43,583 nt of DNA. Origin: a phage. The position numbers and the translations under genes are program-made. This document shows, one piece after another, positions 21,855-39,863 of the stretch. Where the stretch lies: NCBI GenBank assembly GCA_012646105.1, contig GCA_012646105.1_4328.1; one strand, written 5' to 3'. How positions within the stretch are numbered: position 1 is the first letter of the stretch; every line of letters begins with the position of its first letter. The notes under the pieces were generated by a model. It ran no database searches. It saw only the letters and a program-made list of their open reading frames with translations, and was not told the origin of the DNA.

Positions 21855-23105
21855 TTAAAGTGCGAAAGTCACCGGGATGTTGATTACTGGTTTAACCACC
21901 GGCATCTCGTAAACTACAGGATAGCCGAGCGCATCTGCCATATGGTCGATGATGCCATCTTTAGCTGGCTCTCCGTTATCGTCGTAAGCCTGCTGCTCCA
22001 GCGTCTTCGCTATCTCGGGGCATAAGTGGTCGTTAACCCACAGCTTACCTTTTTCCAGCGCGGTATTCACGGCTAAAACACGGTCTTTAACCGGGGGGTT
22101 GGCGGATTTAGCGCGAACATCGAAACCGGCCTGCTGGAGTAATGCAATATCTGAGATTGACGCCGAGTTGGTCTTGCGGTTCTTGCCGCTGGCGTCGGGG
22201 TAAACGACGATGCGGTGGCCCTGCGACTTCCACTTCTCAGTAATTACGCGCACGGTGTCTGGCGTGTCAAACAAGCCTTTCAGTTCTGCCACCGCGTGCC
22301 AGCCATCCTTACGCTGCACATACACGGCGCTGGCGTTCTTTGTAACGTTGAAGTCCTGCCCGATGTACAGCGTGTCGCCTGGTTGAATTGTCTCTTTGCT
22401 GCGGTGCTTACGGCGATCGTAGGCGTAATACACGCTGCCGGAGGTAAGGTTGACGAACTCACCATTCAGATACGCGTTAATCAACTGCGCAGGGTAAGTC
22501 TCGGTCAGTGAGCTAATGTAGTCAGGCGGCAGGAATCGCGCGTTCTCGTGTGTAGAAGCCTGAACCATTGAGTAACTCGGCGTCGGGTTCTCTTTGAACT
22601 TGGCGTATACGAACTTGAACCCTTCCGGCGTCGTGGTGACGGAGATGTGGTTAATTACCCCCGGAATAACAAGACGCATACGGGCTACGATTTTGTTCCA
22701 CGCCATCTCGGCTTTCTCGCGGCTCAGTACATCGAGCTCATCCACGACAGCAGCCGCGATTTTGAAGCCGACTATCGAGCCGGGGTTATCCATCGAACGG
22801 CAGATAACGGTCCCGAGCACCGTCTTACCGCGGGTAACCACGACTTCTTTGTCGCCGGATTTAACCAGCACATCAAGGCCAAGCAGGTTAGCCGCTTCCT
22901 CGAATGTTGGGTAGAAGATGTCACGGATAGCCGGGTATGTCGGGCCGAAGTAGCCCAGGCGCGTACCGGGGTGTTTGAGCATGAACGTAAGCAGGTCGAG
23001 GCAACCAACAAATGTCTTGCCGCTTCCGAAGCCGCCGACATAGGCTTTGTATTTGTTATCGCAATTCAGGAACAGAGCCTGTGGTGCGGATAGCTGAATA
23101 CTCAT
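21855..23105 (-). CDS. terminase large subunit (416 aa)
   Basis: Walker A-like GGFGSGKT near N-terminus, acidic nuclease-type C-terminal half, position. Confidence 0.85.
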   Translation of the reverse strand: MSIQLSAPQALFLNCDNKYKAYVGGFGSGKTFVGCLDLLTFMLKHPGTRLGYFGPTYPAIRDIFYPTFEEAANLLGLDVLVKSGDKEVVVTRGKTVLGTVICRSMDNPGSIVGFKIAAAVVDELDVLSREKAEMAWNKIVARMRLVIPGVINHISVTTTPEGFKFVYAKFKENPTPSYSMVQASTHENARFLPPDYISSLTETYPAQLINAYLNGEFVNLTSGSVYYAYDRRKHRSKETIQPGDTLYIGQDFNVTKNASAVYVQRKDGWHAVAELKGLFDTPDTVRVITEKWKSQGHRIVVYPDASGKNRKTNSASISDIALLQQAGFDVRAKSANPPVKDRVLAVNTALEKGKLWVNDHLCPEIAKTLEQQAYDDNGEPAKDGIIDHMADALGYPVVYEMPVVKPVINIPVTFAL

Positions 23106-23686
23106 TCCTCTACCTCGCCCATATTAGTTGTTACGATTTTACCTACAGGCTCTGCGACACTGAAAACAATCTCCGTCGGTGCTGTTTCTTCGGTGGGTTC
23201 AACCGGTTTCTCTTTGCTAAGGCCCAGCTTCGCGGCGGCAAACGTAGCGGAGATGCCAGCGGCCCCGGTCTCAGTGAAATAGGCCTCTTCCAGCGCCTGT
23301 GCTGTTTCATATGCTTCTGCAAATGCAGGAATCTCGCGCAGCCACAGCTTAATAATCGGGATAGTGACGCCGATGTGTAAGGCGAAGCGGGCCAGTGACG
23401 GTGGTTTATCCTGAATCAGCGGGCGTTCGTCACCCTTGGACGTAGGCACAAGTTCCCACGACGTGCGGTCGAAGAACTCGATTAACGCGTCGCAATAGTC
23501 CGGGTCCCACAACGCGGCGGAATTACGGGATGATTGATAAAGGCTCTGTTTACTGCGCGGTCGTTCACGGCGACGGTTTGCGCTAACAGCTTCTTCATGT
23601 GCAGCTTGCACCACCTCTGGCGATGGCTGCTTAAGTTTCAGCTTCATAGAATCCCCTTGCATATGCGTCTGACCATCAGAGCGCAC
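23102..23686 (-). CDS. terminase small subunit (position-based; GTG start)
   Basis: 194 aa ORF overlapping large subunit start (ATGA), basic N-terminal region. Confidence 0.5.
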   Translation of the reverse strand: MRSDGQTHMQGDSMKLKLKQPSPEVVQAAHEEAVSANRRRERPRSKQSLYQSSRNSAALWDPDYCDALIEFFDRTSWELVPTSKGDERPLIQDKPPSLARFALHIGVTIPIIKLWLREIPAFAEAYETAQALEEAYFTETGAAGISATFAAAKLGLSKEKPVEPTEETAPTEIVFSVAEPVGKIVTTNMGEVEE

Positions 23687-23713
23687 CAGACGCGCCCTAC
23701 GCGTCTAAAGGGA

Positions 23714-23742
23714 TTATATAAGTGGATTGGGCGGGATGTACA
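23714..23742 (-). promoter_or_regulatory. candidate late-operon promoter TGTACA-N17-TATAAT
   Basis: perfect -10 TATAAT on minus strand downstream of terminator 23745-23766 and upstream of terminase small gene. Confidence 0.35.
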
Positions 23743-23744
23743 GA

Positions 23745-23766
23745 AAAGCCCTCCGTAGAGGGCTTT
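23745..23766. terminator. bidirectional terminator separating early-left operon from late operon
   Basis: AAAGCCCTC-CGTA-GAGGGCTTT 9 bp stem with flanking A and T runs. Confidence 0.6.
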
Positions 23767-23866
23767 TCTCAGTTATATAGGCCGTGTCGTGGTGCTCTTT
23801 TACCATCGCCGCCGTAATGGTCGTTAGCTGCGGGAATGGCCCATGCGTTCGGGATGATTAGTAGTC

Positions 23867-24046
23867 TCATTTTAAGAATCTCAACAGGGCATCAGCGATA
23901 CCAGACATAACTAGCCCAAAAAACATAGGCCACCAGATATACCGTGGCAGATTGGTGAATGTTTCTGGCTTAGCCCAAAAAGCCATTAAAAACGCGAACC
24001 AAAACACCAAATAACTAATGTTGCTAAGTAATTCTAAAATATTCAT
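23867..24046 (-). CDS. small membrane protein (59 aa, 2 predicted TM)
   Basis: hand translated (MNILELLSNISYLVFWFAFLMAFW...); ATGA overlap with stop of 24043..24279. Confidence 0.4.
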   Translation of the reverse strand: MNILELLSNISYLVFWFAFLMAFWAKPETFTNLPRYIWWPMFFGLVMSGIADALLRFLK

Positions 24047-24279
24047 TCCCCACTCTCCTCTTTAGCAATACGTTGCTCTGTTTTAGTGATACCACGGCGT
24101 GTGAATAACACCGGGCTGGTCTTAACGTGCGTCATTAGACGGTTGTTATAAATTACATGGCGCTCGCATTTCACGTCTTTGCTGTACTTCGCAATCGTCA
24201 TTTCGTTGAGGCCAGTTTGCCGGCACGTCTCCGCCATCGTGCCGAATTCTTTAATCAGGTTCGGAATGCTGGTAATCAT
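24043..24279 (-). CDS. hypothetical early protein (78 aa, possible HTH)
   Basis: six-frame ORF, coupled overlaps. Confidence 0.5.
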   Translation of the reverse strand: MITSIPNLIKEFGTMAETCRQTGLNEMTIAKYSKDVKCERHVIYNNRLMTHVKTSPVLFTRRGITKTEQRIAKEESGE

Positions 24280-24473
24280 TTACCCTCCGGGTTTACATCT
24301 AAATCGTAACGTTCCTGCAATTCGGCGTACTTATCCATGTAATCAAGTAACATCCGATACGCCTGTAACTGGAACTCTTCGTTCAGTGTCATACCAAGCC
24401 CGAACTCTGGATTACCTTTAGACGCCAGGTGGCCTATCTGTTGGCGCAACGTCTCTTTACATACTCTACTCAT
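24276..24473 (-). CDS. hypothetical early protein (65 aa), paralog-like to 24812..25060
   Basis: shared motif EEFQLQAYRMLLDYM versus GEFQLEAFKLLLERM. Confidence 0.5.
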   Translation of the reverse strand: MSRVCKETLRQQIGHLASKGNPEFGLGMTLNEEFQLQAYRMLLDYMDKYAELQERYDLDVNPEGK

Positions 24474-24640
24474 TTCTTAAACCCTCTCGTTGTCCACATC
24501 GCATTCGGATATTTGTTATCGCGGTCCTGTACTACGGCAATCATGTTACCGCGTTGTACCAGGCAGAAGTGCCGTTGCTGCTCGCCGTTGTAACGACGCC
24601 AGATTGCTTCTTCGATTGCCGCGTTGATGTCACTGAACAT
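24470..24640 (-). CDS. hypothetical early protein (start refined to ATG 24640)
   Basis: GGAG 5 nt upstream of ATG 24640; ORF-track start 24670 overlaps upstream gene. Confidence 0.45.
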   Translation of the reverse strand: MFSDINAAIEEAIWRRYNGEQQRHFCLVQRGNMIAVVQDRDNKYPNAMWTTRGFKK

Positions 24641-24642
24641 AA

Positions 24643-24825
24643 TCACTCCACTATCTCGTCGCCAAGCCAAGCCGTTTCTCGTATATCATCGACCACACAG
24701 GCGGCGTGCTCACGGCTAATCGCAAAAATGTAGAAGCTGAACTTCTTCCCGTCGGCGTCGATGTGGTTAACCGAGTAGGGTTTCCACAGGACGCCATCGA
24801 TAACTACTGGTTCAGGTGCGCCCAT
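24643..24825 (-). CDS. hypothetical early protein (60 aa)
   Basis: six-frame ORF. Confidence 0.45.
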   Translation of the reverse strand: MGAPEPVVIDGVLWKPYSVNHIDADGKKFSFYIFAISREHAACVVDDIRETAWLGDEIVE

Positions 24826-25060
24826 ACACTTTACCGCATTTCAGGCATGTGATACGTCGAGACCCGCCAACAACACGTATGTAGTAATCGTGCTCGCAAG
24901 GCTTTTCGTCCGCTTTCATGCGCTCAAGCAACAACTTAAACGCCTCCAGTTGAAACTCACCGTTAATCGACAGTTGCCCACCTAACGTCTGTTTCTCTGA
25001 CTCGAGCACCAGAATACGGCGCTCAAGTGATGCGATTGTGATTTTAGGCATTAGTGTCAC
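24812..25060 (-). CDS. hypothetical early protein with C-terminal Cys pairs (zinc-ribbon-like)
   Basis: CEHDYY...CLKCG; shares EFQL motif with 24276..24473. Confidence 0.5.
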   Translation of the reverse strand: MTLMPKITIASLERRILVLESEKQTLGGQLSINGEFQLEAFKLLLERMKADEKPCEHDYYIRVVGGSRRITCLKCGKVYGRT

Positions 25061-25229
25061 CTTTGTTCAGGTTGAAGCGATTAATCAGTTCACGGCGCGT
25101 CTCGTAAAGTGACTCAACCATTTGCTCGGCTACCGCGATTTTAGTATTCAGGACGTGCATCACGTGACCGATGTCTACGCCACTGTTAACGGCCTCTACC
25201 ATCATCTTTTCATATTCACGGTCAGTCAT
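25044..25229 (-). CDS. hypothetical early protein (61 aa)
   Basis: six-frame ORF. Confidence 0.45.
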   Translation of the reverse strand: MTDREYEKMMVEAVNSGVDIGHVMHVLNTKIAVAEQMVESLYETRRELINRFNLNKGDTNA

Positions 25230-25383
25230 TTTTACGCTCTCCCCACATGCGATTGAGATACTTGTTCTTGTCCGGCCCCGGGAAACTGTTACGTTTCATC
25301 AGTTCCTCACGTGTCGGGAACGGGGTGTGACTGACTTTACGGCCTACTCGTAAGGGTTGACTTACTTGACCTTGTTCGCTCAT
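25222..25383 (-). CDS. small hypothetical protein (53 aa, MSEQGQVSQPLRVGRK...)
   Basis: hand translated; RBS AGGAG 9 nt upstream; ATGA overlap with upstream ORF. Confidence 0.45.
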   Translation of the reverse strand: MSEQGQVSQPLRVGRKVSHTPFPTREELMKRNSFPGPDKNKYLNRMWGERKND

Positions 25384-25529
25384 TTCTTCTCTCCTGCATA
25401 AGCTGCTTTAAGTGTCTGCATTGCGGCGAACCAGAACGCGTCAGCCGGAATGCTGTTGCTCAGGTTACTAACGGCGATGCGCGCCATAAGTTGTGCGTCT
25501 TTGAATGCTTCGATATCTGTGATTTTCAT
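25380..25529 (-). CDS. small hypothetical protein (49 aa, MKITDIEAFKDAQLMARIAV...)
   Basis: hand translated; RBS GGAG; ATGA overlaps on both sides. Confidence 0.45.
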   Translation of the reverse strand: MKITDIEAFKDAQLMARIAVSNLSNSIPADAFWFAAMQTLKAAYAGEKK

Positions 25530-25714
25530 TTATCATCTCCGTAAAAAGCCGCCACTTGCCCAACAATAGTCATAAAATCATCCATACTCACGCTAACACT
25601 AACTGATTCGTCGGTATCTCCGTCTGTACAAATTATAAGTAATGTCCCGTCACGGCATTTCTCTATCTCCATGAAATCACCCCAGTTATCGGTATGCTTA
25701 ATCTTAGTCATCAT
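25526..25714 (-). CDS. hypothetical early protein (62 aa, acidic)
   Basis: six-frame ORF, first gene after promoter 25749-25777. Confidence 0.5.
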   Translation of the reverse strand: MMTKIKHTDNWGDFMEIEKCRDGTLLIICTDGDTDESVSVSVSMDDFMTIVGQVAAFYGDDK

Positions 25715-25748
25715 TTCTCTCTACCCCGTTCTCGTTGTCGATGGAGTA

Positions 25749-25777
25749 AATATAATAGGGTCGACGGTAATAGTCAA
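25749..25777 (-). promoter_or_regulatory. promoter TTGACT-N17-TATATT (minus strand) with operator half-site
   Basis: -35 at 25777-25772, -10 at 25754-25749, upstream of gene starting 25714. Confidence 0.4.
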
Positions 25778-25805
25778 CTAGTCATTGCAGAAATAGATAA
25801 AAAAA

Positions 25806-25830
25806 ATCCCGGCTGGGTCAGGGCCGGGAT
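25806..25830 (-). terminator. rho-independent terminator ending the lysis transcription unit
   Basis: ATCCCGGC / GCCGGGAT stem with 9 nt loop, followed by T8 run on minus strand. Confidence 0.5.
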
Positions 25831-26061
25831 AAAACTGGAGAGCAGAGGGATGGAACAGGAGGTGATTTAAGTATCGTCGGATTAGTCTCAGGTGTCAATT
25901 GGTAAAATAAAACCCGGATTCGCGGTCCGGGTTTCTGTCATAAGCCCCTGAACCCTACGCAGTCTCCACCGCTTGGGCTGCTGCTTCGGGTTTACCGGGG
26001 CTTAGTATGCGGGCACAAACAGCGTGGATGTAAGTTTACTAAACGCCTTCGTATTCGTCCA

Positions 26062-26598
26062 TCATTTAACAGCCCTCCCAATAGCCTCAGCCTCTTGCCA
26101 CGGTTTACCGTCGAACAGCGCCAGACGCCCGGCTGTACGGCGACGCAGGCCAAGTAGTGGTTTGCCGTTCTGGTTGATGAACAGTGCCAGCTTAGCCCGC
26201 AGTGTTGCAGTATCACCAGAACGCAGTGCCTTGCCTGTGCCCGTAGTAGACGCAATCACGCCAGCACCTGCGTTATACACCAGGTCACACACTGCATCGA
26301 ACTGCGACTGTGTCAGTGAATGGTGTGCTACTGCATCAACCGCAGCTACGGCCTTAGCCATATCGCGATTCAGTAACAGGAGGCCTTGCCCCTTCGTAAT
26401 CTTCTGCCCTTCATACACATGAGGGCCATAGCTTCCGTAGCCTATGGTTAAGTATTTTTCCGAAGGTGTCGCGCGGTATGCGGTCCCGCGGAAATCTTCC
26501 CACGCAGCGGTAAAATGCAATCCGTTATCTGAAATGTTTCGAGACACGCTTATGTCCTCCGTATGACAGCCACGCCTGACGAATCTGGCGCAGCGCAA
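26062..26598 (-). CDS. endolysin, T4-lysozyme-like (likely GTG start at 26547 preceded by GGAGGA)
   Basis: catalytic-region pattern NGLHFTAAWEDFRGTAYRA...LTIGYG. Confidence 0.8.
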   Translation of the reverse strand: MRCARFVRRGCHTEDISVSRNISDNGLHFTAAWEDFRGTAYRATPSEKYLTIGYGSYGPHVYEGQKITKGQGLLLLNRDMAKAVAAVDAVAHHSLTQSQFDAVCDLVYNAGAGVIASTTGTGKALRSGDTATLRAKLALFINQNGKPLLGLRRRTAGRLALFDGKPWQEAEAIGRAVK

Positions 26599-27119: not shown

Positions 27120-27608
27120 TTAAGTATGCAGTAACTGGAGGATAGCACGGTTAGGAATTATCCTAATAGTTGTTTGGTAATAATCTTGCCGCCTGTGTTG
27201 GTGTCGAACTTCGATGCAACGGCTACGCCGCCATGCGCCGCCATGCGCCGAATATCCGCACTCCATAGCGGCTAATGCATATGGCGAGCCAGACCCCACG
27301 GCGGCGTACACATCAGCAACCGGAATAACTGAACTAAGCGCACAATCCCATGATTTATAGAACGCGACTTTGTACACCTTTTCTGTGTCTTTCACGAACA
27401 CCAGGGCTTCGAAATCGAAGTCATAGTGCTGTGGCCGAAGAATACCAGGGCAATCGATAAGCATAGTGCCAACTCCTGCGTCGCCAGCCACACCAATAAC
27501 AGCAAAATCATTCTCATATATCTTTGTGTCTGTGTTGTAGCAGTTACTTCCGCACACAACACGGGTGTCACAACCCATTGTCTTTCCGTCAAATGCGATA
27601 GTAGTCAT
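27120..27608 (-). CDS. HslV-like Ntn-hydrolase peptidase homolog, C-terminus possibly frameshifted by a 10 bp duplication
   Basis: MTTIAFDGK N-terminus, NDFAVIGVAGDAG and AVGSGSPYALAAM blocks resemble HslV; tandem CCATGCGCCG x2 at 27231-27250. Confidence 0.5.
   Translation of the reverse strand: MTTIAFDGKTMGCDTRVVCGSNCYNTDTKIYENDFAVIGVAGDAGVGTMLIDCPGILRPQHYDFDFEALVFVKDTEKVYKVAFYKSWDCALSSVIPVADVYAAVGSGSPYALAAMECGYSAHGGAWRRSRCIEVRHQHRRQDYYQTTIRIIPNRAILQLLHT
27231..27250. repeat. perfect 10 bp tandem duplication CCATGCGCCG-CCATGCGCCG inside coding sequence
   Basis: seen directly in sequence. Confidence 0.9.
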
Positions 27609-27901
27609 TTATGTCTCCAGATGTATTGTCGTCTCTGTGGTTTCGTCGGAGTATCATCGTATCCCAGCGATTTCCAGTAATTAAATAGCCGATTAGCGAT
27701 AGCCGCGCGTTCCTGTGTTTTAAACTCACCGAGATTCACCGCCTTCCCGTTCTGGAACCCGCAGGCGCGGACAGCTTTTCGTCTGGCCTGAATCTCAGGG
27801 TACAGCGCGTTACGGTGGCGCTTGTGTATACGCGTCTTAGCTCTCGGTGACAGCGGCGCAAGACCGCTTCGTTTCAGGATGTCAGTTGCAAGAGACATCA
27901 C
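27605..27901 (-). CDS. hypothetical early protein (98 aa, basic)
   Basis: six-frame ORF, ATGA coupling. Confidence 0.45.
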   Translation of the reverse strand: MMSLATDILKRSGLAPLSPRAKTRIHKRHRNALYPEIQARRKAVRACGFQNGKAVNLGEFKTQERAAIANRLFNYWKSLGYDDTPTKPQRRQYIWRHK

Positions 27902-28101
27902 TTCTCCTGTTTACCAAGCCGCTTAGGTGAGCAGATAGCGCGTACCTCTGAATCGTTAGGCTTGTCGGCCTGAAACAGGAAGTGCGCGTTCTCTGCGGCG
28001 CGTGCCGCTGACTGGCACGCCTCCATCGAGTAAAACGTTTCTGATGCCGCCAGTTGCATCTGGCCCGCGGACAATACCCAGATAAATAAGATGCTGGTCA
28101 T
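27898..28101 (-). CDS. small secreted-type protein (signal-peptide-like N-terminus MTSILFIWVLSAGQMQLAA)
   Basis: start refined to ATG 28101; hydrophobic N-terminus; two Cys. Confidence 0.4.
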   Translation of the reverse strand: MTSILFIWVLSAGQMQLAASETFYSMEACQSAARAAENAHFLFQADKPNDSEVRAICSPKRLGKQEK

Positions 28102-28421
28102 TTGGTCGCTCCACAATTAATACATACGGCGGGAGCCTTACCATTAACGAATCGCCAGTTATGGTGGCATTCCTGGATATCGTCCTTACGGCAACCAGAT
28201 TGCTCCCGTGCGCGGATAAGTTTGTACGCCTCTACATCACCCGTAGCTTTGACCAGAGCCAGATGCAACTCCTTAATCCGCGCCGACGCATCACGTAACT
28301 GATTCTTAAGTGACTGCACCTCATGCGCCAGGTCTTCGCACTGCTGCTTGTATGGGTTGCTGTTTACTTGCTGCCGTAGTTGGTCGATCAGGTACTCGAA
28401 TACTTCGTTTTTGTTACTCAT
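28098..28421 (-). CDS. hypothetical protein with coiled coil and C-terminal zinc-ribbon-like CHHNW...CINCG (alternative start 28466)
   Basis: six-frame ORF. Confidence 0.45.
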   Translation of the reverse strand: MSNKNEVFEYLIDQLRQQVNSNPYKQQCEDLAHEVQSLKNQLRDASARIKELHLALVKATGDVEAYKLIRAREQSGCRKDDIQECHHNWRFVNGKAPAVCINCGATK

Positions 28422-28641
28422 CAGTTTCTCCCAACACCGACTCAATAATGTAAGTATGGACCGCATGGGTTAATGTGTCGCCGTATGACACGCCTGGCGT
28501 ACCAGGGATACCCGCCATCCAACGCATATCACCTTTCGACTGGCGACCTATCATGTGGATGCCGTATCTCTCTACAAGGATGTCCACCTCATCGAGAATC
28601 CCCTTGCGGCGTAACAGCGCACGTGCTTTTGCGGGGGTCAT
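28414..28641 (-). CDS. hypothetical early protein (75 aa)
   Basis: six-frame ORF. Confidence 0.45.
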   Translation of the reverse strand: MTPAKARALLRRKGILDEVDILVERYGIHMIGRQSKGDMRWMAGIPGTPGVSYGDTLTHAVHTYIIESVLGETDE

Positions 28642-28805
28642 TGCGCAACCTCATACAAAGTTTCCGGGTAACCCCATGTTGCTTTAGCAACAAGATTATT
28701 ATCACTATCAACGTATATAGACTCTGGCGTACCTGCATTAATAACCATGTGATACATAAGACCTTCTACTGTGCTGAAAAACTCATCTTTAGTTACTGCT
28801 TTCAT
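28638..28805 (-). CDS. small hypothetical protein (55 aa, MKAVTKDEFFSTVEGLMYHM...)
   Basis: hand translated; RBS AGGAG about 10 nt upstream; first gene after promoter 28837-28865. Confidence 0.45.
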   Translation of the reverse strand: MKAVTKDEFFSTVEGLMYHMVINAGTPESIYVDSDNNLVAKATWGYPETLYEVAQ

Positions 28806-28836
28806 CTTCTGTCTCTCCTCTCGTTTGTGTAAATGA

Positions 28837-28865
28837 ATAGTAGCCTATTCTATCTTAGTGTGCAA
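28837..28865 (-). promoter_or_regulatory. promoter TTGCAC-N17-TACTAT (minus strand) overlapping GAATAG-N4-CTATTC palindrome
   Basis: -35 at 28865-28860, -10 at 28842-28837. Confidence 0.5.
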
Positions 28866-28872
28866 GTAAATT

Positions 28873-29043
28873 TTATTGGTGTTTTAAATATAATCGTTCA
28901 CTGCGAATCCAGTAGTACCTCGGGCGTCGTACCCACTGACGCCATCGCATAACACGGTACTTGTTGCCGTCTGACGCAACAATAAGCCCGAATCGCTTTT
29001 CTCCGTTTCTACCGGTCCAGGTTACGATGTCATTCAGTTTCAT
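28873..29043 (-). CDS. hypothetical early protein (start refined to ATG 29043 with AGGAG RBS)
   Basis: ORF-track start 29067 is GTG without RBS. Confidence 0.45.
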   Translation of the reverse strand: MKLNDIVTWTGRNGEKRFGLIVASDGNKYRVMRWRQWVRRPRYYWIRSERLYLKHQ

Positions 29044-29114
29044 TGTTGCATCTCCTGCAATAGTCACTTCGATTGTTGCGTTTGGTGAAATAGAACAAAA
29101 ATGAGAAAAATGAT

Positions 29115-29134
29115 ACGCTGCTGTGTAGCAGCGT
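29115..29134 (-). terminator. rho-independent terminator (minus strand)
   Basis: ACGCTGCT-GTGT-AGCAGCGT 8 bp stem followed by T-rich tract on minus strand. Confidence 0.45.
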
Positions 29135-29157
29135 AAGTCACTCAGTAAAATCCCAAA

Positions 29158-29319
29158 CTATTGACCTGTTACACCACCTGTCATACCGGCACGATATTGC
29201 ACACCAGCTTTCCACGCCCGCCACGCGAGACGCGTCTTAACGTTCAGGTACTCTTTCTTCGAACCCTTGTTAACTGGCAGACCCTCGACGACGGCCCACC
29301 GTTCGAATGCTTCTCTCAT
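29158..29319 (-). CDS. small hypothetical protein (53 aa)
   Basis: hand translated (MREAFERWAVVEGLPVNKGSKKEY...); weak G-rich RBS. Confidence 0.35.
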   Translation of the reverse strand: MREAFERWAVVEGLPVNKGSKKEYLNVKTRLAWRAWKAGVQYRAGMTGGVTGQ

Positions 29320-29370
29320 ACCAACCCCCACAACGCGTGCGCCACATAAATAGCGCTGACAATTAAAATG

Positions 29371-29613
29371 TTATTCACGGCAACCTCCCTCAGAGTCGTC
29401 GGCACAAGCATCACGATTCGATGCCGCTGTGAATGAGGCTTTCAGTCCGCCATCGAATACCCCATATTCGCCGTCGCCGAACTGGTCAACTACCAACTCG
29501 CACCCTGTTTCATCTATTACATAATCGTAATCAGGTGTTGAATAACCGCTGTATGATCTTCCCGGCTTGAACCCCGATAATTTACTTTTCACGCAAATTA
29601 ATTCTTCCATCAC
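29371..29613 (-). CDS. hypothetical early protein (80 aa, acidic, Cys-containing)
   Basis: six-frame ORF, ATGA coupling. Confidence 0.5.
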   Translation of the reverse strand: MMEELICVKSKLSGFKPGRSYSGYSTPDYDYVIDETGCELVVDQFGDGEYGVFDGGLKASFTAASNRDACADDSEGGCRE

Positions 29614-29810
29614 TTCACCCCTTTGAATTTAAAATTGTTGCCAATTAATTCCAGATTATCGCGTAAGGCGAACCCGGGTTTCTTTCTTACCAGGCTCCAT
29701 ACGTCGACTATATTATCCTCGTCATACTCGTTCTCGTCCTGCAACACTATTACGTACTGCCCACCGCGTTCCGTTTTCACCAACTGACCACGTTTAAACA
29801 TAACCCTCAC
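29610..29810 (-). CDS. hypothetical early protein (66 aa; ATG at 29801 or GTG at 29810)
   Basis: first gene after promoter 29836-29864. Confidence 0.5.
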   Translation of the reverse strand: MRVMFKRGQLVKTERGGQYVIVLQDENEYDEDNIVDVWSLVRKKPGFALRDNLELIGNNFKFKGVK

Positions 29811-33252: not shown

Positions 33253-33325
33253 TTGATATGTGAATAGTACCATATTAATTATTTTAGAAAAGCCCATTGA
33301 CATGTGAATAGTTCGCTATTATAGT
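33253..33325. promoter_or_regulatory. divergent promoter/operator region with two operator palindromes
   Basis: TTGATA-N17-TAATTA and TTGACA-N17-TATAGT, each spacer containing TGTGAATAGT; leftward -10 TACTAT at 33269-33264. Confidence 0.5.
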
Positions 33326-36125: not shown

Positions 36126-36154
36126 TTGACACCTGAATAGTTAGCTATTATATT
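36126..36154 (+). promoter_or_regulatory. promoter TTGACA-N17-TATATT with TGAATAG-N4-CTATTAT operator in spacer
   Basis: consensus -35, upstream of 36208 gene. Confidence 0.5.
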
Positions 36155-39578: not shown

Positions 39579-39863
39579 ATGACCCCGGAAGGAAAGATTC
39601 AGAAATACGCAAAAGAGCAATTCGAGGCCATTGGCGGCCTCGTTCGTAAGATGGCATTTGAAGGTCGGCGGGCCGCCATGGACCTCCTGGTAATTCTCCC
39701 CGGCGGCATCGTCTGGTTCGTCGAGGTTAAGAAAGACGAAAACACGAAGCCAGACCCGCACCAACTACGGGAACATGAGAGATTTCGAAAACGTGGCGCT
39801 AATGTTTTTGTCGTTGGTTCGTTTAAACAGGTTGACGACCTAATAGCGAACTATTATAGTTAG
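39579..39863 (+). CDS. VRR-NUC domain nuclease (94 aa)
   Basis: DLLVILPGGIVWFVEVK PD-(D/E)xK-type core. Confidence 0.6.
   Translation: MTPEGKIQKYAKEQFEAIGGLVRKMAFEGRRAAMDLLVILPGGIVWFVEVKKDENTKPDPHQLREHERFRKRGANVFVVGSFKQVDDLIANYYS

Follow-up and report, generated by a model that had tools for sequence, protein, structure and literature searches.

A mosaic cassette of small genes between the endolysin and terminase genes of a Kagunavirus phage

Background

What is the nature of a run of very small genes packed between the lysis and packaging modules of a virulent phage, and are all of them in fact genes? This question is raised by bp 23867-25714 of a 43,583-nucleotide stretch of phage DNA (GenBank assembly GCA_012646105.1, contig GCA_012646105.1_4328.1; the whole stretch is referred to here as the window). 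The original prediction for this region, made from the sequence alone, described an early operon of eleven tiny, translationally coupled open reading frames (ORFs) that included a paralogous pair and that belonged to a kind of locus from which host-takeover and anti-defence factors usually come. The comparisons described below suggest that the region, here called the cassette, is probably an insulated and shuffled accessory-gene operon, partly related to the nin and ea regions of lambdoid phages.

Almost the whole genome of a Kagunavirus (Guernseyvirinae), a K1G/Jersey-like virulent siphovirus with E. coli as host, is contained in the 43.6-kb window. The cassette is located on the minus strand between the endolysin gene (26062-26598) and the small terminase gene terS (23102-23686). 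The closest deposited genomes are approximately 90% identical across 18 kb, and the annotated layout of relatives places holins, endolysin, a run of small 'hypothetical' genes, small terminase, large terminase and portal on one strand. Hundreds of Guernseyvirinae genomes in the databases already carry this cluster, its products being recorded as hypothetical proteins. When bp 23700-25900 were compared with phage records, 364 matches were obtained, mostly to Escherichia and Salmonella phages, with identities of 88-93% and coverage of 70-83%; coverage of just this extent at such identity was the first sign of mosaicism. For a closer comparison, 50 related loci were taken from IMG/VR via the terS protein, and the 37 that span endolysin to terS make up the comparison set to which the locus counts below refer.

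Results and discussion

Gene content and coding status

The interval is tiled gap-free by ten minus-strand ORFs, named here O1 to O10, and an eleventh gene, O11 (23769-23870, minus strand), lies just beyond it. The ORFs described in the original prediction are therefore real, but those within the interval number ten rather than eleven and encode 49-79 aa rather than 49-78 aa. An eleventh ORF inside the interval was considered as the source of the higher count and ruled out, as the minus strand holds just ten ORFs of at least 49 aa there. The junctions of O1 to O10 consist of five ATGA overlaps, two 8-nt overlaps, one 14-nt overlap and one 2-nt gap between stop and start codons; inclusion of O11, which is a 33-aa gene joined by an ATGA overlap to the O10 stop and is the last gene of the operon, raises the ATGA overlaps to six and leaves the other classes unchanged. 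The joining of these ORFs by ATGA and other short overlaps was thus confirmed from the sequence. This layout fits translational coupling, and the overlapping or abutting stop and start codons along the cassette would allow it. A clear Shine-Dalgarno sequence of the GGAG/GAGG type precedes nine of the ten starts from O1 to O10, while that of O6 is weak.

Several lines of evidence bear on whether these ORFs are translated. Coverage of the interval by ORFs of at least 49 aa is 100%, compared with a mean of 29% and a maximum of 75% in 1000 dinucleotide-preserving shuffles, and the ten ORFs observed compare with a mean of three and a maximum of eight in the same shuffles. All but one of the ten proteins hit a PHROG family, in each case of unknown function (E-values 1e-15 to 1e-40). 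Ratios of nonsynonymous to synonymous divergence (pN/pS) were calculated between same-length orthologues from the related loci and the window copies, giving 0.12 for O2, 0.10 for O3, 0.06 for O4, 0.33 for O5, 0.10 for O6, 0.15 for O7, 0.09 for O9 and 0.15 for O11; values of 0.31 for O1, 0.36 for O10 and 0.49 for O8 were each obtained from one or two orthologues, two in the case of O1. All of the well-sampled genes are under purifying selection (pN/pS 0.06-0.33). For O11, which is found in 27/37 loci, 139 differences fall at the third codon position and 46 and 40 at positions 1 and 2, and an ORF of the same length is annotated at the corresponding position in phage KMB36. Based on the low pN/pS and the excess of third-position differences, the backbone genes and the 33-aa O11 are protein-coding.

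An alternative is that some or all of these ORFs are chance reading frames within a non-coding spacer. The small number of orthologues and the higher pN/pS (0.31-0.49) of O1, O8 and O10 would be compatible with this, as would the weak Shine-Dalgarno sequences of O6 and O11. However, the shuffle test, the surplus of third-position substitutions, the PHROG matches and the conservation of the genes across two genera all argue otherwise. For the backbone genes this explanation is effectively refuted, and for the cassette it is extremely improbable.

Promoter and terminators

A promoter designated Pcas (TTGACT-N17-TATATT; 25749-25777, minus strand) precedes O1. It scores 10/12 in a sigma-70 consensus scan in which just eight sites genome-wide reach 10/12 or more. 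Its hexamers are invariant in 37/37 loci, including those of the Salmonella Jersey type, while the 17-nt spacer varies at up to six positions. Invariant hexamers combined with a variable spacer are the footprint expected of a working sigma-70 promoter. As Pcas is near-consensus, host RNA polymerase should recognise it without a phage activator.

The cassette is bounded by two intrinsic terminators. Upstream, T2 (CCCGGCC-CTGACCC-AGCCGGG followed by T8; 25799-25828, minus strand) insulates the cassette from the lysis genes. RNA folding of T2 gives an 8-bp hairpin, the element is kept in 35-36 of the 37 loci (35 by pattern search), and a compensatory change (CCCGGTAA..TTACCGGG) is seen in the stem of the Salmonella-type loci. 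Downstream, T3 (GCCCTCTACGGAGGGC followed by TTTTCT; 23740-23768, minus strand) has a stem that abuts the O11 stop codon; it is kept in all 37 loci, again with compensatory stem changes (GCCCGC..GCGGGC) in those of the Salmonella type. The conservation of T2 and T3 on both sides indicates that the cassette is a transcription unit separate from the lysis and terminase genes. The coordinates originally given for the promoter (25749) and terminator were correct, both elements are phylogenetically conserved, and Pcas, T2 and T3 bear out the view of the region as a polycistronic unit of its own, complete with promoter and terminator.

Mosaic structure

Gene-order strings from the 37 loci reveal a backbone of O2-O3-O4-(O5)-O6-O7-O9 that is interrupted by five slots in which unrelated small genes are exchanged. 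Roughly 50 gene families occur across these loci, several tiny membrane proteins among them. In the window, the slot before O2 is occupied by O1 (5/37 loci), the slots between O2 and O3 and between O6 and O7 are empty, the slot between O7 and O9 is occupied by O8 (2/37 loci, the window and L045) and the slot between O9 and terS is occupied by O10 and O11 (13/37 and 27/37 loci, respectively). The slot genes O1 and O10 have GC contents of 0.40 and 0.38, compared with 0.504 for the genome. Chimeric genes are also found in relatives: P0139 pairs an O4-like N-terminus with a C-terminal part of the O5 type, and in P0040 O4 and O5 are fused. These results show that the cassette is a recombination hot spot.

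In six relatives (L009, L011, L021, L027, L030 and L045), the slot between O6 and O7 holds a 76-aa protein (MFHELKILPEHFEPVLAGVKLAELRLNDRNF...) that, judged by eye, looks ASCH-like. Other relatives carry a membrane-anchored coiled-coil protein of 82-86 aa at this position. Neither protein is found in the window.

Relationship to lambdoid accessory regions

O9 (24043-24279, minus strand, 78 aa) is a core gene present in 37/37 loci, and its product is a NinH-like helix-turn-helix protein. In a BLASTP comparison, O9 is 31% identical to lambda NinH over 51 residues of the helix-turn-helix region (E=1e-8). Lambda NinH forms a Fis-like dimer that bends the DNA to which it binds, and its overproduction is toxic (PMC7166090). 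Seven NinH residues whose mutation impaired DNA binding (N18, R30, T32, K35, H45, H55 and R56) were checked in O9, which keeps T32, K35, H45 and H55 as T28, K31, H41 and H51. O9 differs from lambda NinH in having a 20-residue C-terminal extension. A single-sequence AlphaFold2 model of O9 had a predicted local distance difference test score (pLDDT) of 57 and was set aside. O9 appears to be a distant homologue of NinH and a putative DNA binder, and we have filed it as NinH-like.

Other backbone genes point in the same direction. O3 (25222-25383, minus strand) encodes a basic 53-aa protein of the DUF2737 family (Pfam PF10930, 38.9 bits, E=8.3e-10, above the gathering score of 25). It matches P22 orf56, which lies beside eaE and abc2 (E=4.6e-9), and it has homologues in Sf6, HK544 and Stx phages. 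O4 (25044-25229, minus strand) encodes a helical, NinZ-like protein of 61 aa (phrog_1402). In position and length it equals SETP3 ORF59, which is annotated as 'NinZ-like', a correspondence by position and not by alignment; direct comparison of O4 with P22 NinZ gave a weak match (56% over 23 aa, E=0.005 in a small database). Among relatives, O4 exists as two alleles that are approximately 50% identical, and some O4 alleles carry a C-terminal zinc ribbon. Together with the O5/O8 family described below, O9, O4 and O3 make four backbone families that appear to be common to the cassette and to lambdoid delayed-early accessory regions.

The lambdoid nin region (lambda ninB-ninI; P22 ninA-ninZ) resembles the cassette in being a run of small, overlapping ORFs, which in the nin region are mostly dispensable. 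The nin-type content of the cassette is limited to the NinH-like O9, the NinZ-like O4 and one hairpin family of the nin region, whereas NinB, NinG/Rap, NinI and other larger nin genes are absent. The two regions also differ in location and in transcription: the nin region sits between the replication genes (O/P or DnaB) and Q and is reached by read-through from pR, whereas the cassette sits between endolysin and terS in a virulent phage and has its own promoter and flanking terminators. The P22 ea region, a set of early-left accessory genes, shares only O3 (orf56) with the cassette and differs from it in location and regulation, although DUF551, which is fused to some members of the hairpin family, is common in ea-type regions. 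The cassette also resembles the hypervariable moron and plasticity regions known from phages: in both, small genes are swapped in and out of discrete slots, insertions of low GC occur, and promoter and terminator are dedicated to the region. Morons, however, are single promoter-gene-terminator units, while the cassette is one multi-gene transcription unit. A search of the literature on DUF2737, the Jerseyvirinae (including Jerseyvirus RNA-seq) and CM001 found nothing functional.

Flanking elements

Just upstream of Pcas is a second promoter (TTGACA-N17-GATACT; 25870-25898, minus strand), which is followed by approximately 64 nt and then T2. In the transcript of this small unit (25799-25898, minus strand), an unstructured C/U-rich 5' part (AUCACCUCCUGUUCCAUCCCUCU) resembles the anti-Shine-Dalgarno end of 16S rRNA. 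The promoter hexamers and a CAUCCCUCU core are kept in 36/37 loci, and in the majority of relatives the -35 hexamer of this promoter encloses the stop codon of the endolysin gene. The unit could encode a small RNA, or it could be an antitermination unit similar to P-late/t-late of P22. An Rfam scan of bp 23500-26200 returned sub-threshold matches only, that for the 25799-25898 unit being RF02278. The window phage also carries an extra insert of approximately 165 nt (25904-25934 and 25935-26061, minus strand) between the endolysin stop codon and the second promoter. This insert ends in an additional terminator (AAACCCGGACCGCGAATCCGGGTTTTATTTT), which is also visible in relatives L015, L021, L030 and L037. 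The distance from endolysin to T2 ranges from 72 to 409 nt among the loci.

On the other side of the cassette, the interval between T3 and terS (23688-23742, minus strand) was compared across loci by MAFFT alignment. It contains a conserved TGTACA-N18-TATAAT element, after which come a perfect inverted repeat (AGACGCG-TAGGG-CGCGTCT) and another repeat (GTCTG...CAGAC). These elements could serve as a packaging site, as a leader structure, or as a late promoter or operator.

The O5/O8 pair and the helical-hairpin family

O5 (24812-25051, minus strand) encodes a 79-aa protein (82 aa from an upstream GTG; the likeliest start is the ATG at 25051, which is preceded by AAGGTG). This protein consists of an N-terminal helical hairpin (residues 1-46) and a C-terminal CxH...CxxC zinc ribbon. 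O8 (24276-24473, minus strand, 65 aa) encodes a second copy of the hairpin with a different C-terminal tail. The motif EFQLxA(Y/F)(R/K)(M/L)LL(D/E)xM, from which the two had been proposed as paralogues, is present exactly as described and occurs only in O5 and O8 in the six frames of the window. Although BLASTP of O5 against O8 with default settings gave no alignment, Smith-Waterman comparison of residues 1-46 of both proteins was significant, with a score of 58 against 23.5±4.6 for shuffled sequences (z ~7.6, 0/20,000 shuffles). Both proteins also match the same PHROG profiles, phrog_9023 (8.8e-40 for O5 and 1.6e-8 for O8) and phrog_10200 (1.1e-21 for O5 and 1.3e-14 for O8). Based on the shuffle test and these common profiles, O5 and O8 are held to be homologous despite the empty BLASTP result.

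The other implication of a paralogous pair, duplication in situ, did not stand. A recent tandem duplication within the window phage might be suggested by the spacing of O5 and O8, approximately 340 bp apart in one operon, and by their common motif and PHROGs. However, the two proteins are only 33% identical to each other. O8 stands closer to 49-aa proteins of Salmonella Jerseyvirus (55-57% identity), to a DUF551 fusion (60%), to a prophage nin-region protein (52%) and to proteins that share its C-terminal tail (64%), and metagenomic proteins also fall within this 52-64% range. Furthermore, the O8 slot is empty or otherwise occupied in 35/37 relatives. Duplication is thus very improbable: the low mutual identity, the greater similarity of O8 to other proteins and the rarely filled slot indicate that O5 and O8 represent separate lineages within a single family, united by recombination.

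The close family of O5 has 285 relatives, all of which are unnamed, lack Pfam domains and come from contigs as long as a Kagunavirus genome. Their N-terminal 46 residues are almost invariant, while at least five types of C-terminal tail are found: the CxH...CxxC zinc ribbon (79 aa, as in O5), DEEDWxHxLQDLWQY (61 aa), EEEQKLLLSPEFDYGVDDESA (67 aa), a 98-aa form and a form with no tail (50 aa). A profile search of 1.8 billion representatives extended this to a wider hairpin family with 106 representatives at 50% clustering. Most of these are 47-100 aa in length, many have a similar zinc ribbon and some are fused to DUF551; the ten clusters for which names were retrieved are all called 'hypothetical protein'. 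One member, P0181 (257 aa), comes from a Hafnia/E. coli lambdoid prophage, where its gene lies in the nin region with DnaB/DUF4406 on one side and NinB on the other. The hairpin family is therefore widespread, and it is absent from Pfam and NCBIfam.

An AlphaFold2 model of O5 (pLDDT 84) has helices at residues 6-22 and 29-49, followed by three strands at 56-78 that correspond to the zinc ribbon. A fold search with this model returned nothing from the PDB at E<=0.001 and only uncharacterised phage proteins, mostly from Kagunavirus relatives, from BFVD. The ribbon is also found elsewhere in the genome. Specifically, a 122-aa coiled-coil ORF at 28098-28466 (minus strand; phrog_6094), which has a weak match to the CT398-like coiled-coil hairpin domain (CT398_CC), carries a C-terminal CxH...CxxCG ribbon that aligns with the O5 tail (BLASTP E=7e-6). 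As it occurs both on this ORF and on some O4 alleles, the zinc ribbon seems to be a mobile C-terminal module.

This pattern suggests how such proteins might work. The constant hairpin probably serves in oligomerisation or docking, and the interchangeable tails (zinc ribbon, acidic aromatic and others) would set the target of each variant. A coiled-coil hairpin combined with a zinc ribbon is the architecture of families of the DksA/TraR and HP0958/CT398 types, which dock onto RNA polymerase or sigma factors. O5, with its predicted hairpin and small zinc ribbon, is like DksA, TraR, lambda Orf73, HP0958 and CT398 in resemblance only: DksA/TraR proteins have a C4 zinc finger rather than CxH...CxxC, the O5 hairpin is much shorter, and O5 had no match to PF01258 (DksA/TraR) or PF02591 at E<=1 in Pfam and no structural match in the PDB. 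A more ambitious and quite doubtful proposal, to which we give little credence, is that O5 and O8 belong to a previously undescribed set of modular adaptors of enterobacterial phages, whose hairpin docks onto a single conserved partner or oligomerises and whose swappable tails, DUF551 included, steer them towards varied targets in the host or the phage, possibly as O5-O8 heterodimers where both copies coexist, and that the adjacent C/U-rich transcript of approximately 64 nt is an anti-Shine-Dalgarno small RNA acting on translation. The doubt applies to the two parts of this proposal taken jointly.

Expression timing

Pcas shares an extended form (TTGAC-N13-CTAT-TATA(T/G)T) with three near-consensus promoters of the replication arm (TTGAC(A/G)-N13-CTAT-TATA(G/T)T; 33297-33325, 36126-36154 and 39832-39860, plus strand). 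The latter precede exonuclease, polymerase and helicase genes and have similar spacers (..TGAATAGTTnGCTAT). The likeness suggests that these promoters and Pcas form a phage-specific class, and the match of Pcas to promoters of the replication arm makes early expression, as originally proposed, plausible. Also favouring early expression are T2 and T3, which cut the cassette off from both of its late neighbours, and the location of the lambdoid homologues of O3, O4, O5/O8 and O9 in delayed-early ea or nin regions.

Two points tell against an early class. The cassette is flanked, on the same strand, by the two late modules for lysis and packaging, and the only published Kagunavirus RNA-seq study places the NinH gene in the 'middle' class together with lysis and structural genes (PMC12645636). 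In that study, infection was unsynchronised, phage reads never exceeded 9% and 'early' was defined as 5-30 min, the whole latent period (PMC12645636); as its 'early' class spans all 30 min, it does not decide the timing of the cassette. On balance, the promoter and the gene content make it likely that expression of the cassette starts early in infection, and additional late read-through into it may occur.

A second run of approximately ten small, packed ORFs is found at 27120-29810 (minus strand), upstream of the holins and beside a divergent control region. It includes an ORF for an HslV-like peptidase (27120-27608), and the rest belong to PHROGs of unknown function or to none. By position, this cluster is a more obvious candidate than the cassette for immediate-early expression.

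Function of the cassette

The reading that we favour, and that we consider probable, is that the region is an insulated, shuffled accessory-gene operon of a virulent Kagunavirus with partly nin/ea-related content. As such, the cassette would be a functional counterpart of the nin/ea region. Its proteins would be made from early infection together with those of the replication genes, would be dispensable and conditionally useful and would bind DNA or host or phage proteins, and its accessory genes would be exchanged horizontally between phages. Some observations weigh against this reading. O9 scores 20.8 bits (E=3.8e-4) against Pfam PF06322, below the gathering threshold of 29.8, and three of the seven NinH residues checked (R30, R56 and N18) are replaced in O9, by E26, V52 and T14, respectively. 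The link between O4 and NinZ is weak. The roles of the hairpin and tails are drawn from the conservation pattern only, and fold searches matched nothing annotated. Finally, the 25799-25898 unit might act in antitermination and thereby also carry late transcription across the cassette.

Two other explanations were weighed. If the cassette were an anti-defence or host-takeover island, it would supply small inhibitors early and its variable slots would reflect an arms race. The small size and strong mosaicism of the genes, the low-GC insertions and the sigma-70 promoter that the cassette possesses are all compatible with such an island; O1 is very acidic, like DNA-mimic anti-restriction proteins; and a 57-aa gene at the O4 position in phage EcoPhCCP1, the seventh CDS annotated in its record, may be 'CDS 7' (by an assumed and unverified numbering), which was named by its authors as an anti-CRISPR candidate using in-silico tools only (PMC12919940). 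However, the O-proteins (ten or eleven) gave only noise when compared with NCBIfam, PADLOC and PDB chains, which include many solved anti-defence proteins, although no dedicated anti-defence library was searched. The backbone genes are highly conserved over two genera (pN/pS 0.06-0.15) and are not diversifying, and NinH, DUF2737 and NinZ-like proteins are not known as anti-defence proteins. In addition, the published phenotyping of the BASEL collection describes Kagunavirus phages as highly sensitive to restriction-modification and variably sensitive to Old (PMC11990801). The host-takeover or anti-defence role that was originally put forward is thus unsupported: it is possible for the slot genes and unlikely for the cassette as a whole.

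Alternatively, the cassette could be a middle or late operon for packaging or virion production, in which the NinH-like protein and its neighbours assist terminase at a downstream packaging site and expression accompanies that of the late genes, possibly via antitermination from the 25799-25898 unit. The cassette is directly upstream of terS on the same strand, conserved inverted repeats separate T3 from terS, the RNA-seq data group the NinH gene with structural and lysis genes, and the upstream promoter, leader of approximately 64 nt and terminator resemble P22 P-late/t-late in layout. Set against this are the strong promoter that the cassette has of its own, which is of the replication-arm class, and the terminators that part it from both neighbours. 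The lambdoid homologues are located in early regions and are dispensable; deletion of the lambda nin region, for example, shows that the nin genes can be lost. Furthermore, a conserved assembly role does not fit so variable a gene content, and no Q-like antiterminator was found in the annotation of EF2-1, a relative, or in a Pfam/PHROG scan of ten upstream ORFs. We do not think a packaging role likely, and we prefer to regard the cassette as an accessory-gene operon.

With its shuffled nin/ea-related genes, hundreds of sequenced relatives and no demonstrated function, the cassette is largely ordinary, a member of a well-populated and already annotated kind of phage accessory region. What is mildly new is limited to the hairpin family, with its modular build, and to the small promoter-terminator unit. 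This study adds a map of the operon with its conserved promoter and terminators, evidence that the 33-aa O11 is a real gene and the placement of the supposed paralogues in a widespread family with a fixed N-terminal hairpin and interchangeable C-terminal modules. Kagunavirus phages are in use as small chassis for phage engineering and therapy, and for this purpose the operon map points to 2 kb that are likely dispensable, to natural junctions for gene swapping and to the small proteins that should be screened first.

Remaining genes of the cassette

O2 (25380-25529, minus strand, 49 aa) is a core gene found in 37/37 loci and belongs to phrog_2180 (E=1.9e-26). O6 (24643-24825, minus strand) encodes an acidic 60-aa protein of phrog_10509; it is present in 32/37 loci and is core in the Kagunavirus phages of E. 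coli. O7 (24470-24640, minus strand; phrog_5407), present in 28/37 loci, encodes 56 aa, or 66 aa from an upstream TTG, and its likeliest start is the ATG at 24640, which is preceded by a GGAG Shine-Dalgarno sequence.

The two other slot genes differ in character. O1 (25526-25714, minus strand, 62 aa) encodes a strongly acidic protein (pI 4.1, net charge -8) that has no match in PHROG or Pfam. O10 (23867-24046, minus strand, 59 aa) encodes a protein with two hydrophobic segments and a grand average of hydropathy (GRAVY) of 0.85 in the window copy; the representative of its cluster has a maximum Kyte-Doolittle window score of 2.0. The O10 proteins of the different loci are 37-86% identical, and O10 is probably a small membrane protein.

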